A DNA stretch of 9,104 bases from a virus (lineage: Duplodnaviria > Heunggongvirae > Uroviricota > Caudoviricetes), in the IMG/VR virus record IMGVR_UViG_2703718773_000014, one strand, 5' to 3'. This document shows, piece by piece, positions 1,787 through 7,743 of this stretch. Numbering within the stretch: position 1 is the stretch's first letter; every line of letters begins with the position of its first letter. The translations under genes and the position numbers were made by a program. The notes beneath the pieces are model-generated. The model worked only from the letters and a program-made list of their open reading frames with translations. It ran no database searches and had not been told where the DNA came from.

Positions 1787-2110
1787 ATGGATGCACAAAC
1801 ACGCCGCCGCGAACGTCGCGCAGAGAAACAGGCTCAATGGAAAGCAGCAAATCCCCTGTTGGTTGGGGTAAGCGCTAAACCAGTTAACCGCCCTATTCTC
1901 TCGCTGAATCGCAAACCGAAATCACGAGTAGAAAGCGCACTGAATCCGATAGACCTTACGGTGCTGGCTGAATACCACGAACAGATTGAAAGCAACCTGC
2001 AACGTATTGAGCGCAAGAATCATCGAGTTTGGTATAGCAAGCCAGGTGAGTTCGGTATAACTTGTCAAGGAAGACAAAAGGTTAAAGGGGAATCCATTCC
2101 ATTGGCATGA
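1787..2110 (+). CDS. N: Antitermination protein N (107 aa)
   Basis: MDAQTRRRERRAEKQAQWKAANPLL... carries the arginine-rich motif and matches lambda N. AGGAGA RBS lies upstream. The track ORF start at 1655 is an upstream extension through nutL and is rejected. Confidence 0.92.
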   Translation: MDAQTRRRERRAEKQAQWKAANPLLVGVSAKPVNRPILSLNRKPKSRVESALNPIDLTVLAEYHEQIESNLQRIERKNHRVWYSKPGEFGITCQGRQKVKGESIPLA

Positions 2111-2118
2111 GGTACGTA

Positions 2119-2988
2119 ATGAAGAAGATTGATTACAAGTCCATACCAAAACCAATAGACTCAGCATCAGAGCGAAAAAAACACAAAAAAGAGGCTGAAA
2201 AATTAGCAAATTATATCAGTTTTATTAGAAACAATGCTCACGGCGATGGCGACAAGAAGTTGCTTTCAGATGCTCGGACCCAAGCGTTCGGTATACTTCG
2301 TAAGCAGATGCAATATCGTCTTCATCCTGGCTACATAATTGAAATTCGCCCTACTGAAAGACAATTGTTCTTATTAAACTCTGTCTTTGACTTTGTAAAC
2401 GTAGTTGGAGATCTTATCGACAGGTCTGTAGATAAGGATCCTGATACAAATAGTTTTCTTCTAACAAATAAAGAATACTTATATGGTAAATTCGGTATAA
2501 ACGGATGGCAAAAATATGTACGCTTCTTACGTGCATTCGTTGATGCGTATAAAAATTCCGACATGATTTATACATATTTGCCTGGTGGTGATAATTGTAC
2601 GCTTTCGGCAGACAATAGAATATTCATACCTGTACTTGGTCTTGGGCTGATTAATGCAGTAAATGAAAAAGATGTTATAATTGTTAAGCAGTGGCGAAAA
2701 TATGAGGGATATAGATATCTGCCATGCTTTGATATATTAAAAATACAGAATAAATTCTATGTAAAAATTAAATATAAAGAAGATATTTTCTTCCTCAGAA
2801 AAAACATAGATCTTTTACAAGAACTTTCTGGTACAATAGATGTCATCTTAGGTTCTAGGTTTATAAAAGAACTGAAAGAAAGCAGGTCTTTCTCTCGTGT
2901 AGAGATAAGCGAGTCAGAGTTATGGGGTATATCAAATAATCCTGTAAACCACGCTCACCAACGAAACCCAAACAAAAAGTGGTCATAA
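2119..2988 (+). CDS. Hypothetical protein (~289 aa; alternative start 2107 gives 293 aa), AT-rich, unknown function
   Basis: Long uninterrupted ORF. The ATG at 2107 overlaps the N stop (ATGA); the ATG at 2119 is preceded by GAGGT with a 5-nt spacer. Composition is visibly more AT-rich than the flanking genes. No motif I can recognise (no Walker A, no TM segments). Confidence 0.6.
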   Translation: MKKIDYKSIPKPIDSASERKKHKKEAEKLANYISFIRNNAHGDGDKKLLSDARTQAFGILRKQMQYRLHPGYIIEIRPTERQLFLLNSVFDFVNVVGDLIDRSVDKDPDTNSFLLTNKEYLYGKFGINGWQKYVRFLRAFVDAYKNSDMIYTYLPGGDNCTLSADNRIFIPVLGLGLINAVNEKDVIIVKQWRKYEGYRYLPCFDILKIQNKFYVKIKYKEDIFFLRKNIDLLQELSGTIDVILGSRFIKELKESRSFSRVEISESELWGISNNPVNHAHQRNPNKKWS

Positions 2989-3130
2989 CCCGCTCAGGCG
3001 GATTTCATTTTCACGCAAACAACAGAATAAACACAGCGCTGTGTATTCATTCCAACGAGTGAATACACGGAGCAATGTCGCTCGTAACTAAACAGGAGCC
3101 GACTTGTTCTGATTATTGGAAATCTTCTTT

Positions 3131-3158
3131 GCCCTCCAAGATGAGGGCGATTTTTTAT
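3131..3158 (+). terminator. Rho-independent terminator-like hairpin (GCCCTC-N6-GAGGGC followed by a T-run)
   Basis: Perfect 6-bp GC-rich stem 3131-3136/3143-3148, then GATTTTTTAT, just upstream of ea10. Confidence 0.6.
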
Positions 3159-3176
3159 CTGTGAGGATATGAACAG

Positions 3177-3545
3177 ATGTCAAACATCAAAAAATACATC
3201 ATTGATTACGACTGGAAAGCATCAATAGAAATTGAAATCGACCATGACGTAATGACAGAGGAAAAACTTCACCAGATTAATAATTTCTGGTCAGACTCTG
3301 AATACCGACTCAATAAACACGGCTCTGTATTAAATGCTGTATTAATCATGCTGGCGCAACATGCTCTGCTTATAGCAATTTCAAGCGACTTAAATGCATA
3401 TGGTGTTGTGTGTGAGTTCGACTGGAATGATGGAAATGGTCAGGAAGGATGGCCTCCAATGGATGGTAGTGAAGGAATAAGAATTACCGATATCGATACA
3501 TCAGGAATATTTGATTCAGATGATATGACTATCAAGGCCGCCTGA
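3177..3545 (+). CDS. ea10: Ea10-like early protein (122 aa)
   Basis: 122-aa ORF with the same length and position (between N and cIII) as lambda ea10. The sequence MSNIKKYIIDYDWK... is consistent with my memory of Ea10. GAGGA lies upstream. Confidence 0.75.
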   Translation: MSNIKKYIIDYDWKASIEIEIDHDVMTEEKLHQINNFWSDSEYRLNKHGSVLNAVLIMLAQHALLIAISSDLNAYGVVCEFDWNDGNGQEGWPPMDGSEGIRITDIDTSGIFDSDDMTIKAA

Positions 3546-3617
3546 GCGCGGCGTTACCGCATACCAATTACGCTTCACTCGAGGCGTTTTTCGTTATGTA
3601 TAAATAAGGAGCACACC

Positions 3618-3782
3618 ATGCAATATGCCATTGCAGGGTGGCCTGTTGCTGGCTGCCCTTCCGAATCTTTACTTGAACGAATCACCCGTAAATTACGTGA
3701 CGGATGGAAACGCCTTATCGACATACTTAATCAGCCAGGAGTCCCAAAAAATGGATCAAACAATTATGGCTATCCAGACTAA
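3618..3782 (+). CDS. cIII: CIII (54 aa, inhibitor of FtsH-mediated CII degradation)
   Basis: ATG at 3618 after AAGGAG. Translation MQYAIAGWPVAGCPSESLLERITRKLRDGWKRLIDILNQPG... matches lambda CIII. It is below the ORF-track length cutoff. Confidence 0.9.
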   Translation: MQYAIAGWPVAGCPSESLLERITRKLRDGWKRLIDILNQPGVPKNGSNNYGYPD

Positions 3783-4270: not shown

Positions 4271-5056
4271 ATGAGTACAGCACTCGCAACGCTGGCAGGG
4301 AAGCTGGCTGAACGTGTCGGCATGGATTCTGTCGACCCACAGGAACTGATCACCACTCTTCGCCAGACGGCATTTAAAGGCGATGCCAGCGATGCGCAGT
4401 TCATCGCATTGTTGATCGTCGCCAACCAGTACGGCCTTAATCCGTGGACGAAAGAAATTTACGCCTTCCCTGATAAGCAGAACGGCATCGTTCCGGTGGT
4501 GGGCGTTGATGGCTGGTCCCGCATCATCAATGAAAACCAGCAGTTTGATGGCATGGACTTTGAGCAGGACAATGAATCCTGTACATGCCGGATTTACCGC
4601 AAGGACCGTAATCATCCGATCTGCGTTACCGAATGGATGGATGAATGCCGCCGCGAACCATTCAAAACCCGCGAAGGCAGAGAAATCACGGGGCCGTGGC
4701 AGTCGCATCCTAAACGGATGTTACGGCATAAAGCTATGATTCAGTGTGCCCGTCTGGCCTTCGGATTTGCTGGTATCTATGACAAGGATGAAGCCGAGCG
4801 CATTGTCGAAAATACTGCATACACTGCAGAACGCCAGCCGGAACGCGACATCACTCCGGTTAACGATGAAACCATGCAGGAGATTAACACTCTGCTAATC
4901 GCCCTGGATAAAACATGGGATGACGACTTATTGCCGCTCTGTTCCCAGATATTTCGCCGCGACATTCGCGCATCGTCAGAACTGACACAGGCCGAAGCAG
5001 TGAAAGCTCTTGGATTCCTGAAACAGAAAGCCACTGAGCAGAAGGTGGCAGCATGA
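4271..5056 (+). CDS. bet: Bet (Red-beta single-strand annealing protein, 261 aa)
   Basis: [68 protein letters not shown]... matches lambda Bet in sequence and length. Confidence 0.93.
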
Positions 5057-5733
5057 CACCGGACATTATCCTGCAGCGTACCGGGATCGACGTGAGAGCT
5101 GTCGAACAGGGGGATGATGCGTGGCACAAATTACGGCTCGGCGTCATCACAGCTTCAGAAGTTCATAACGTAATAGCAAAACCCCGCTCCGGAAAAAAGT
5201 GGCCTGACATGAAAATGTCCTACTTCCACACCCTGCTTGCTGAGGTTTGCACCGGTGTGGCTCCGGAAGTTAACGCTAAAGCGCTGGCCTGGGGAAAACA
5301 GTACGAGAACGACGCCAGAGCCCTGTTTGAGTTCACTTCCGGCGTGAATGTTACTGAATCACCGATCATCTATCGCGACGAAAGTATGCGTACCGCCTGC
5401 TCTCCAGATGGTTTATGCAGTGACGGCAACGGCCTTGAACTGAAATGCCCGTTTACCTCCCGGGATTTCATGAAGTTCCGGCTCGGTGGTTTCGAGGCCA
5501 TAAAGTCAGCTTACATGGCCCAGGTGCAGTACAGCATGTGGGTGACGCGAAAAGATGCCTGGTACTTTGCCAACTATGACCCGCGTATGAAGCGTGAAGG
5601 ACTGCATTATGTCGTGGTTGAGCGGGATGAAAAGTACATGGCGGGTTTTGACGAGATGGTGCCGGAGTTCATCGAAAAAATGGACGAGGCACTGGCTGAA
5701 ATTGGTTTTGTATTTGGGGAGCAATGGCGATGA
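5053..5733 (+). CDS. exo: Lambda exonuclease (Red-alpha, 226 aa)
   Basis: [73 protein letters not shown]... matches lambda Exo. Its start overlaps the bet stop (ATGA). Confidence 0.93.
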
Positions 5734-5912
5734 AGCATCCTCACGATAATATCCGGGTAGGTGCGATCACTTTCGTCTACTCCGTTACAAAGCGAGGCTG
5801 GGTATTTCCCGACCTTTCTGTTATCCAAAATCCACTGAAAGCCCAGCGGCTGGCTGAGGAGATAAATAATAAACGAGGGGCTGTATGCACAAAGCATCTC
5901 CTGTTGAGTTAA
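5730..5912 (+). CDS. orf60a: Orf60a-like small protein (60 aa)
   Basis: [27 protein letters not shown]... immediately downstream of and overlapping the exo stop, as in lambda. The track start at 5724 would add two residues. Confidence 0.75.
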
Positions 5913-6076
5913 GAACGAGCATTGAGATGGCACATAGCCTTGCTCAAATTGGAGTCAGGTTTGTGCCAATACCAGTAGAAACAGACGAAGAATTTCATAC
6001 GTTAGCCACATCCCTTTCACAAAAGCTGGAAATGATGGTGGCGAAAGCAGAAGCAGATGAGAGAGACCAGGTATGA
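5885..6076 (+). CDS. orf63: Orf63-like small protein (63 aa)
   Basis: 63-aa ORF overlapping the orf60a 3' end, with the same size and position as lambda orf63. Confidence 0.7.
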   Translation: MHKASPVELRTSIEMAHSLAQIGVRFVPIPVETDEEFHTLATSLSQKLEMMVAKAEADERDQV

Positions 6077-6086
6077 CAACCACTGA

Positions 6087-6368
6087 ATGCATTTTTCTGG
6101 CAGCGGGCTTCATATTCTGTGTGCTTATGCTTGCCGACATGGGGCTTGTTCAGTGACACCTCAGCAAGAAAACGCCCTTCGCAGCATTGCCCGTCAGGCT
6201 AATTCTGAAATCAAAAAAGCCAGACAGCAGTTTCCGGATAAAAACGTCGATGACATTTGCCGTAGCGTACTGAAGAAGCACCGCGAAACGGTAACGCTGA
6301 TGGGATTCACACCGACTCATTTAAGCCTGGCGATCGGCATGTTAAACGGCGTCTTTAAGGAACGGTGA
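6087..6368 (+). CDS. Hypothetical small protein in the lambda orf61 region; start uncertain (ATG 6087, or in-frame GTG 6153 giving 71 aa)
   Basis: ORF on the operon strand. The N-terminal 22 residues are hydrophobic and Cys-rich and may not be translated. I cannot confirm orf61 identity from memory. Confidence 0.45.
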   Translation: MHFSGSGLHILCAYACRHGACSVTPQQENALRSIARQANSEIKKARQQFPDKNVDDICRSVLKKHRETVTLMGFTPTHLSLAIGMLNGVFKER

Positions 6369-6466
6369 GCATGAAAAGCAAAATCATCAGGGAGCTACAG
6401 GCTCCTTTTTTATTGTTCGCATTCACCCTCAAGCGTATTAACCAACAATTCAGGGATTAATGGAAG

Positions 6467-6688
6467 ATGGCAGACATCATTGATTCAGCATCAGAAATTG
6501 AAGAATTACAGCGCAACACAGCAATAAAAATGCGCCGCCTGAACCACCAGGCTATATCTGCCACTCATTGTTGTGAGTGTGGCGATCCCATAGATGAGCG
6601 AAGACGCCTGGCCGTTCAGGGTTGTCGGACTTGTGCAAGTTGCCAGGAGGATCTGGAACTTATCAGTAAACAGAGAGGTTCGAAGTGA
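6467..6688 (+). CDS. orf73: TraR/DksA-family C4 zinc-finger protein (lambda orf73-like, 73 aa)
   Basis: CxxC-N17-CxxC motif (CCECGDPIDERRRLAVQGCRTCASCQ), characteristic of the DksA/TraR zinc finger. The 73-aa size matches lambda orf73. Confidence 0.8.
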   Translation: MADIIDSASEIEELQRNTAIKMRRLNHQAISATHCCECGDPIDERRRLAVQGCRTCASCQEDLELISKQRGSK

Positions 6689-6840
6689 GCGAAATTAACT
6701 AGAAGCCAAAGATAAAATCATCGCTGAGCAGGAGAAAATCGCTAACGGAGAAAAGACAGTAAGTCAGTATATGAAAACCGCATGATATCATCAGATAAAA
6801 ATCGATCGTAAAGCGAAATATTAATACCAGAATAAACGAG

Positions 6841-6898: not shown

Positions 6899-7501
6899 TC
6901 ATTCAGTATCATCACGCGCGGTCTGTGCATATGTTACTACCGCACCTAATGTATTAATTTTCTTTTCAACATAGATAATATTATCGTACTCATAATTGCC
7001 ATACGGATAGCAAATGCGAATATTCTCATGTAGATCGGGGTCATCCACCTCAGCTCCAGAACAACTTTTTGAACTACCGGAAGTATACCGATACGGTGCA
7101 ACATAAGACGATGTCTCTCCAGGCAAAAAATAAGTTAGTGTTGTAAGGGGTATAATCAGAAAAAATCCAGCAAATATGCACATCCCTGCATAAACCTTAA
7201 GGTATGCTGACAGACTCTTCCAGCCGCTTTGTTTTACTATCCCCTTCTTAACCCAAAACAGAGATAACAGAAAAGCTATTCCCATGCTAAACAGAATGTA
7301 ATAGTGGGATATACTCTGATTAAGAAACGTGACCCTGTAAATATCTGCCCGCCACCAGAAGAAAAGGAAAATAAAGATCAGGCCTGAAACTGTCATGCAA
7401 ATCAAATAAGGATACGAATCTTTTTTCATGTTTAGCGTCCATAAAATTTTTCCTGCCCCGGACAAATTTACCATCCATTTTTTGCGCAGAAAATAGCTCA
7501 T
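6899..7501 (-). CDS. Hypothetical integral membrane protein (up to 200 aa; alternative starts at 7474 and 7429), AT-rich, reverse-oriented
   Basis: Three hydrophobic segments (LICMTVSGLIFIFLFFWW; YYILFSMGIAFLLSLFWV; VYAGMCIFAGFFLIIPLTTLTYFL) followed by a ~75-aa Cys-containing hydrophilic C-terminal domain. It is on the strand opposite the pL operon and visibly AT-rich. No candidate start has a strong RBS. Confidence 0.6.
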   Translation of the reverse strand: MSYFLRKKWMVNLSGAGKILWTLNMKKDSYPYLICMTVSGLIFIFLFFWWRADIYRVTFLNQSISHYYILFSMGIAFLLSLFWVKKGIVKQSGWKSLSAYLKVYAGMCIFAGFFLIIPLTTLTYFLPGETSSYVAPYRYTSGSSKSCSGAEVDDPDLHENIRICYPYGNYEYDNIIYVEKKINTLGAVVTYAQTARDDTE

Positions 7502-7743
7502 TACTTACTGCACAATAATACACAAAATTGCGTAAATTTTTTGCATGGATTTTAGCTCTTTCAGCCGACGTTTAAGGGGTAAATAGCATTTCCTAAAAGC
7601 AACTGCACCAACCCAACAGAATGAGCTACCGCTTACGTTGAGAGCAAAAAAGTGTATAGCAGCAATGAACAGCATCCTCGCACTGACGAGGATTTCTTTT
7701 ATCTGAACTCGCTACGGCGGGTTTTGTTTTATGGAGATGATAA

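Follow-up and report, generated by a model that had tools for sequence, protein, structure and literature searches.

A gene next to N in coliphage 434 joins a Nun-type C-terminal peptide to a predicted TnpB/Cas12-like lobe

Coliphage 434 is a textbook model, yet the gene lying next to its N gene has no assigned function. What does this gene encode, and what might its product do? The question was addressed in a 9,104-nt stretch of Caudoviricetes DNA (IMG/VR record IMGVR_UViG_2703718773_000014; hereafter, the window), which is the leftward early region of phage 434 and, across 98% of its length, matches OL657226.1 at 99.4% identity. It was found that the 289-aa product ends in a peptide identical to the C-terminus of the RNA-polymerase arrest protein Nun of phage HK022, and that its modelled core resembles the REC lobe of TnpB/Cas12. 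On balance, we favour, without great confidence, the view that the gene encodes a modular transcription-elongation blocker made of a Nun-type plug and a TnpB-derived targeting module. The gene and the parts of its product are listed here.

2119–2988, + strand: target gene, 289 codons and stop (CPT_434_48; PHROG 12139)
2119–2325, + strand: aa 1–69, basic N-terminal extension (isoelectric point (pI) 10), predicted as a helical hairpin (helices 16–38 and 43–65), delimited by model, alignment and charge
2326–2778, + strand: aa 70–220, predicted TnpB/Cas12-like REC lobe (strand beta1, 71–77; REC-like helical insertion, 80–145; WED-like barrel, strands 152–219 with helix 183–196)
2779–2895, + strand: aa 221–259, long helix after the WED-like barrel in the structure model, where TnpB would go on into RuvC
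2878–2916, + strand: aa 254–266, motif ESRSFSRVEISES, kept in the Nun-tailed family
2917–2943, + strand: aa 267–275, variable disordered linker
2944–2988, + strand: aa 276–289 and stop, Nun-type RNA-polymerase arrest peptide VNHAHQRNPNKKWS, recognised by its identity to Nun and by codon comparison

The C-terminal peptide shared with Nun

The last 14 residues of the protein are identical at 14 of 14 positions to residues 96–109 of HK022 Nun. The match to PHROG 5632 (Nun-like termination factor) was confined to aa 270–289 (E = 5e-5), and among PDB sequences the last 40 residues matched a single one, 6ALG chain N (E = 1.8e-5), which is Nun bound in an arrested elongation complex. The gene also bears the GenBank name 'Nun C-terminal peptide-containing protein'. 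The preliminary description of this DNA, which had seen no motif in the product, thus overlooked a recognisable peptide. In cryo-electron microscopy of Nun, residues 87–109 alone were ordered, and they carry all known arrest determinants (PMC5386594; PMC6391919). R102 of Nun forms a pair with the carboxylate at the C-terminus; K106, K107 and W108 are placed between the downstream DNA and the hybrid. The variant N103A behaves like wild type (PMC5386594). R102, K106, K107 and W108, together with N97, H98 and H100, touch polymerase or nucleic acids, or lower activity when mutated (PMC5386594). The pattern V-N-H-A-H-x-R-x-x-x-K-K-W was kept in all six full-length homologues of the 434 protein (36–68% identical to it; hereafter, with it, the long family) and in the fragment P0007. 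Its invariant positions are equivalent to Nun N97, H98, H100, R102, K106, K107 and W108, and the long-family tails were variable at the equivalents of Nun Q101, N103, P104 and N105.

A codon comparison of six genes was used to calculate the ratio of non-synonymous to synonymous change (pN/pS), which was 0.13 for the tail, 0.25 for the motif at aa 254–266, 0.45–0.54 for the folded parts and 0.85 for the linker. Selection thus acts most strongly on the tail, which is no by-product of the mosaic joint that begins at 2943 in 434. Synonymous divergence was ∼0.8 throughout the gene, a saturated level at which the pN/pS values are an index only; the same level indicates that the conservation of the tail reflects selection, not recent transfer.

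Outside this peptide, the 434 protein and HK022 Nun (P18683; PDB 6ALG chain N; PHROG 5632) share less. The arrest residues from N97 on are kept in the 434 protein, both tails are disordered, both genes belong to the pL operon, where they either follow N immediately or occupy the N/nun slot, and the DNA is ∼95% identical from the tail through the downstream flank. In contrast, Nun has ∼110 aa and is intrinsically disordered, whereas the 434 protein has 289 aa with a folded body of 220 residues. The arginine-rich motif of Nun, SRDRRRIARWEKRIAY, which binds lambda boxB RNA, has no counterpart in the alignment of the 434 protein, which moreover lacks H93 and R94 and coexists with a lambda-type N and boxB. 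The identity at the DNA level begins abruptly at 2943 and runs beyond the stop codon.

2943–3158, + strand: DNA module common to 434 and the 3' end and downstream flank of HK022 nun (∼95% identity), the HK022 copy being interrupted by IS903

When viral contigs were scanned with a degenerate pattern, 121 tail matches were obtained. HK022-type Nun accounted for 46 of them and long-family proteins for 30; the other 45 fell in other open reading frames (ORFs), mostly encoding 83–125-aa proteins with different arginine-rich N-termini, the rest comprising remnants, pieces of Nun at the ends of contigs and a single fortuitous match in a frame of 787 codons. Because the tail ends many different proteins, the plug is a portable module; among these matches, a large folded domain bearing it was found in the long family only. 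The small plug-ending proteins (83–125 aa; IMG/VR loci L019–L138) showed at least six different N-terminal arginine-rich motifs. A lambda-N-like N-terminus, MDAQARRREKRKEKQEEWK, occurred for example in L049, L052, L063, L064 and L104, the motif NSRNRRREARKAER in L023, L065 and L069, and GPRTAKGRRRAKR in L047 and L055. These sequences suggest that the small proteins are diversified Nun-type factors aimed at different nut sites.

A predicted body related to the TnpB/Cas12 REC lobe

An AlphaFold model built with three close homologues had a mean predicted local distance difference test score (pLDDT) of 45 and was discarded. A usable model was obtained from a 24-sequence alignment that included remote relatives (pLDDT 82, predicted template modelling score 0.72). 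Residues 11–259 were predicted to be folded with a mean pLDDT of 82, the linker had a pLDDT below 50 and the end was disordered; besides the elements listed above, the helical insertion resolved into helices 80–102, 110–116 and 118–145. In the REC lobe of TnpB, WED (residues 1–12 and 117–176) is a beta-barrel flanked by a helix, and a four-helix REC domain (13–116) is inserted after beta1 (PMC10097598). Our model likewise showed a WED beta-barrel that is interrupted after beta1 by a helical REC domain. The core of the 434 protein, as modelled, shares the fold of the TnpB/Cas12 REC lobe, so that the suggestion in the preliminary description that the fold may be uncharacterised did not hold for this part. 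Foldseek searches placed the same families on top with weak E-values. Against viral models, the top matches included giant-virus 'transposases', which were taken to be of the TnpB/Fanzor type.

Sequence comparison gave a faint signal in the expected register. By hhalign, the family profile aligned aa 71–98 with residues 6–33 of a 66-sequence TnpB N-terminal profile (score 27.5, P = 0.003). The scores of 100 column shuffles (mean 13.5, standard deviation 2.1, maximum 19.8) were all below this value, and with relaxed settings a collinear alignment of 68–224 with TnpB 3–178 was obtained. When the family alignment was used as a profile against PDB sequences, nothing meaningful was obtained. The RuvC domain with its D-E-D triad and the TNB/zinc finger are absent, and no RuvC or other Pfam match was found in any member, including those of 430–454 aa; in the 434 protein the WED-like barrel is followed by one helix and the disordered tail. 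The core is probably a distant homologue of the TnpB/Cas12 REC lobe, while the protein itself is no TnpB.

Other hallmarks of the TnpB lineage were looked for next to the genes. No omega-RNA, put or other Rfam family was detected beside any homologue, the sole Rfam match being the cIII thermometer, although an RNA inside the ORF is not excluded by this search. Ends of the IS200/IS605 type were not found either; the flanks consist of N or put on the 5' side and the shared nun 3' flank on the 3' side. All family members are basic, with a calculated pI of 9–10.5, and the body of the 434 protein has a pI of 9.5. In the alignment, the N-terminal extension (aa 1–69) was restricted to the Nun-tailed subfamily. 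Its basic helix at aa 16–38 was considered as a homologue of the arginine-rich motif of Nun or N and was rejected, as it is lysine-rich and poorly conserved (P0003 reads SERTKQDIAAKMLRNC); it may still bind RNA.

Compared with TnpB, Cas12 and Fanzor proteins (ISDra2 TnpB, PDB 8H1J; RdCas12n, PDB 9UDI), the 434 protein lacks RuvC and TNB, and no Pfam signature was detected in it. It has a C-terminal polymerase-binding tail instead, and omega-RNA and IS200/IS605 ends were not found with it. TldR and other nuclease-dead TnpB/Cas12f derivatives are likewise TnpB-lineage proteins turned to transcription control, some of them on mobile elements. The described exaptations TldR, dCas12f-sigma and Cas12k have reportedly each retained the RuvC lobe together with a guide RNA, and the TldR-type derivatives, with an inactivated RuvC lobe, reportedly act as DNA-bound roadblocks or recruiters. 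The 434 protein, in contrast, would have lost the NUC lobe and would carry a peptide that, by analogy with Nun, enters the polymerase cleft.

Seventeen remote proteins share the core and the motif S.xY(S/A)RVDF, the counterpart of the motif at aa 254–266, beyond which the tails diverge. All of them reciprocally matched PHROG 12139 (best E = 2e-13). They are devoid of the N-terminal extension and end in an invariant ..L.G..V.GGLPSLGKRR (C-termini of P0010–P0028). This tail had no match among PDB sequences; the scaffold may here bear another kind of effector peptide. PADLOC, Pfam and NCBIfam gave no matches for the remote group, as for the 434 protein. In a BREX locus (L011/L012, 3137–12246), brxC and pglX flank the gene of one relative, P0033 (276 aa, ending in GGLPSLGKGR); the locus was confirmed by PADLOC (BrxA, BrxB, BrxC and PglX, E = 4e-74 to 0). 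At one end of this locus there is a gene with transposase domains (rve, Mu-transposase C-terminal and a faint Tn7 TnsA-like match). The Burkholderia protein P0041 is encoded in a 1.3-kb unit at two different chromosomal sites (L008, ∼4488–5787; L010, ∼5413–6712). The unit is bounded by ∼29-bp inverted repeats (TGC.GGGAAAC.GAATTC.TGAGAC.GAG), with extra internal copies of GAATT..TGAGAC, and is flanked by 4-bp target duplications, GCCC in L008 and ATGC in L010; it resembles a small transposable element of the non-autonomous kind, with this one gene as cargo. The occurrence of relatives with a different tail in a BREX locus and in a transposable unit suggests that the scaffold may be reused in bacterial immunity.

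The gene in the pL operon and its distribution

The gene order in the window is cro (on the – strand), cI, hex, pL/nutL, N, the target gene, a terminator, ea10, cIII, kil, gam, bet, exo, further early genes, xis and int. The features that bear on expression of the target gene are listed below; those of pL and nutL were carried over from the annotation of OL657226.1 (L001-to-window offset, 394), and the nutL boxB hairpin sequence gccctgaagaagggc is readable in the window.

1552–1630, + strand: pL –10 (1552–1557), transcript start (∼1565) and nutL boxB hairpin (1614–1630), promoter region of N and the target gene
1787–2110, + strand: gene N, lambda-type antiterminator of 107 aa with arginine-rich motif MDAQTRRRERRAEKQAQWK
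2109–2113, + strand: Shine-Dalgarno sequence GAGGT, 5 nt upstream of the ATG at 2119, annotated as ribosome-binding site in the 434 record
3129–3158, + strand: intrinsic terminator downstream of the target gene, with an 8-bp G+C-rich stem followed by TTTTTT

The + strand ORF at 2107–2988 contains the target gene, and it had been proposed that a gene of ∼290 aa starts at or within 12 nt of the N stop codon. This was borne out, with the start at the ATG at 2119, 8 nt beyond the N stop, giving 289 aa; the same start and the same ribosome-binding site are given in the GenBank record of 434. In L005, the locus of a 68%-identical homologue, the ATG equivalent to 2107 runs into an in-frame TAA two codons on, which places the real start at the downstream ATG. 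The GAGGT overlaps the N stop codon (TGA, 2108–2110), and this arrangement is the signal for translational coupling between N and the target gene. The tight junction is also kept in L005, L015/L016, L092 and L136. The terminator at 3129–3158 is the first G+C-rich intrinsic terminator after pL.

The G+C content of the gene is 34.6% (30% at third codon positions), compared with 45.7% for the rest of the window, ∼49% for N and 38.5% for ea10, and only 0.15% of 870-nt windows had a G+C content as low. Homology to lambda spans 1561–2043 and 3017–3700 of the window, with N DNA 95.5% identical to that of lambda as far as 2043. Since the homology ends at 2043 and restarts at 3017, the segment 2044–3016 substitutes for lambda 35103–34065, where lambda carries sieB, orf28, ral and the end of N. 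The preliminary description was right that the gene is more AT-rich than N and ea10 and occupies the lambda ral/sieB slot, and its proposal that a cargo gene was separately acquired in the N-to-ea10 interval is supported. Apart from the shared position between N and ea10, the target gene has little in common with lambda SieB and Ral: the proteins differ in size, and sequence similarity was not found in any library searched. There was no indication of anti-restriction or of SieB-like membrane exclusion. PADLOC, Pfam and NCBIfam gave zero matches for the 289-aa protein.

Two other features of the window were recorded. A second AT-rich block (35–40% G+C) at 6899–7675 on the – strand contains two genes antisense to the pL operon, annotated in the 434 record as putative membrane proteins, the larger of ∼190–200 aa, according to which start is taken, and the smaller of 56 aa. 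At 3605–3663, the Rfam family Lambda_thermo was matched with 88.5 bits, which is the known cIII RNA thermometer and was expected.

Among 5.8 billion clustered proteins, only four clusters matched (99% identity, a fragment, 68% and 42%), and an exhaustive profile search of 1.8 billion representatives yielded 25 proteins. PHROG 12139, of unknown function, covers the protein end to end. The gene was present in 93 of 5,426 complete Escherichia coli genomes, where it was always chromosomal and annotated as hypothetical. Its position is always after an N-like gene or in the nun slot of an HK022-like phage. A lambda-type N adjoins it in 434, L005, L015/L016 and L109, N-like genes with other arginine-rich motifs adjoin it in L092 and L136, and an N remnant precedes it in L014. 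In the HK022-like contigs L003 and L084, a 42%-identical homologue follows a cI-type repressor and sits exactly in the place of nun, and no N is present there. The leader in these contigs matches the HK022 operators, pL and a ∼70-nt near-identical block, which by its sequence was taken to be putL.

A genuine nun can occupy the post-N position too, as in phage Kapi1 (L017, 900–1546), where it starts two nt after a phi21-type N. In phage PA28 (L018, 901–1546), a phi21-type N also lies two nt before nun; the nun frame is intact, its start is lost and a 45-aa remnant is annotated. As for the target gene itself, L048, L071, L076 and L115 hold a 242-codon frame from which the first ∼20 codons, including the start, are lost, and in L102 an IS1 lies upstream. 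The E. coli matches H72–H75 are also among the minority of copies that are start-less, cut by IS1 or partly deleted.

Proposed action and competing explanations

In the reading that we favour, the disordered C-terminal 14 residues would serve as the Nun 'plug', entering the polymerase cleft and blocking translocation as they do in Nun. The basic WED+REC-like body, free of a nuclease domain, would tether the plug to particular transcription complexes, as its modelled fold suggests; in TnpB, the REC lobe holds the target-adjacent (TAM) duplex and WED contributes to omega-RNA binding (PMC10097598), and the WED+REC lobe of TnpB/Cas12 reads the TAM/PAM (the Cas12 counterpart) duplex and part of the guide RNA. 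The Nun chain leaves the arrested complex near the upstream duplex and RNA exit (PMC5386594), and it is near these that the body would recognise a DNA motif or a nascent-RNA structure. As the sequence shows, the protein is co-expressed with N, the translation of the two being coupled on the immediate-early pL transcript, ahead of the first G+C-rich terminator. Its role may lie in competition with other phages and possibly in restraint of host transcription, while N-modified or put-modified polymerases of the phage itself would be spared. N antagonises Nun, both acting on the same complexes (PMC5386594), and put-modified polymerase reads through Nun-dependent termination (PMC8632103).

This bears on the earlier proposal, drawn from position, of an exclusion or abortive-infection function. 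Exclusion gained from the Nun arrest peptide at the C-terminus and from the 42%-identical homologue in the nun position, and nothing pointed to abortive infection. The preliminary description had also held that a confident match to a phage regulatory protein would speak against its proposal. Such a match was found for the last 14–20 residues only; since the matched protein is itself an exclusion factor, the exclusion idea comes out stronger, not refuted. The earlier interpretation is thus partly supported, and a role in phage–phage exclusion now has homology behind it in addition to position.

Several observations weigh against our reading of the gene. The link to TnpB rests on the 24-sequence model, in which the N-terminal 69 residues are backed by about 5 of the 24 sequences, and the sequence similarity is weak. 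The TnpB Pfam families PF12323 and PF01385 (OrfB_IS605) gave no match at E ≤ 10 in 24 family members, for which Pfam as a whole yielded scattered single matches only. Nun H93 and R94 contact the upstream DNA duplex and contribute to binding (PMC5386594), and their equivalents in the long family, S/N/D/G and N/S/K/Q, are not conserved. Lambda-type boxB cannot be the target, because 434 itself uses a lambda-type N and boxB. A promoter scan found no sigma-70-like promoter between N and the target gene, with fewer sites overall than in shuffles, so that independent expression in a lysogen, and with it classical prophage-mediated exclusion, is unsupported. Truncation or interruption by IS1 affects about one-sixth of the copies found in viral contigs, and such loss in a minority of copies indicates that the gene is dispensable in prophages. 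Finally, no study of the 434 protein was found in the literature.

A serious alternative, to which we allot a minor but real chance, is that the protein is a general shut-off factor without a specific target, arresting any unmodified RNA polymerase of host or phage while polymerases of the phage itself are protected by N or put; the folded domain would then merely raise the affinity for elongation complexes. Nun alone does arrest non-specific complexes, with a dissociation constant of ∼300 nM, and is toxic when over-produced (PMC5386594), and the read-through by put-modified polymerase (PMC8632103) would provide the protection. The constant pairing of the gene with put or with an N-like gene of several arginine-rich-motif types, and early expression from pL before the first terminator, fit this explanation as well. 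However, a conserved fold of 150 residues of a kind that reads DNA or RNA sequence exceeds what a non-specific affinity tag needs, the resistance of N-modified complexes to the Nun plug is an assumption, and the loss or truncation of the gene in a sizeable minority of prophages marks it as dispensable.

Improbable, in our judgement, is the explanation that the Nun tail is a recombination relic, joined in frame by chance, the folded domain alone being functional, for instance as a DNA-binding regulator. A mosaic joint typically looks like the abrupt 434/HK022 identity over 2943–3158, which extends beyond the stop codon, and in the remote homologues this core is combined with a tail of quite another kind. 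But homologues retain the tail even where most synonymous sites in its codons differ, its pN/pS is the lowest in the gene, and its invariant positions are functional Nun residues, so that the selection analysis contradicts a relic. An equally small chance is given to an autoregulator of the phage's own pL/pR early transcription, acting as a brake on N at a set point. Strict coupling to N would fix the ratio of N to the protein, and the antagonism of Nun and N on the same complexes (PMC5386594) would suit such a brake; yet the homologue in the HK022-like phages has no N to oppose, and the gene is missing from lambda and many relatives with the same N. That the WED/REC module holds a guide RNA placing the plug, as TnpB and TldR might suggest, is very improbable: despite the fold relationship and the contribution of TnpB WED to omega-RNA binding, RuvC, which forms half of the omega-RNA surface and half of the heteroduplex channel in TnpB (PMC10097598), is absent here, there is no conserved non-coding flank (the 3' side is shared with nun phages that lack the gene, the 5' side being N or put), and the Rfam search was empty.

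We therefore keep to a Nun-type plug on a TnpB-derived targeting module as the favoured reading. More tentatively, and with a good deal of doubt, the protein may be the founding example of a nuclease-free class of TnpB REC-lobe derivatives that deliver short C-terminal effector peptides to cellular machines, here as a sequence-directed transcription arrest factor. In lambdoid phages the lobe would then recognise an RNA structure or, as TnpB does with the TAM, a short DNA motif, and would set a Nun plug into the RNA polymerase as it passes. The Nun peptide had already been recorded by annotators; the fold link was found in no report, and no report linking TnpB and Nun, or the 434 genome and Nun, was found in the literature. 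The hypothesis is testable with existing Nun arrest assays and Nun-resistant rpoC alleles. If it is true, the 14-residue Nun plug would be a portable effector fused to various targeting devices, from arginine-rich peptides to a folded nucleic-acid reader, and the TnpB lineage would have been exapted in an undescribed way, with the recognition lobe kept and the nuclease lobe discarded. Such a protein could also provide a compact means of sequence-directed transcription blocking. For the lambdoid phages, it would mean that they own a second, Nun-independent means of interfering with each other's transcription or with that of the host.

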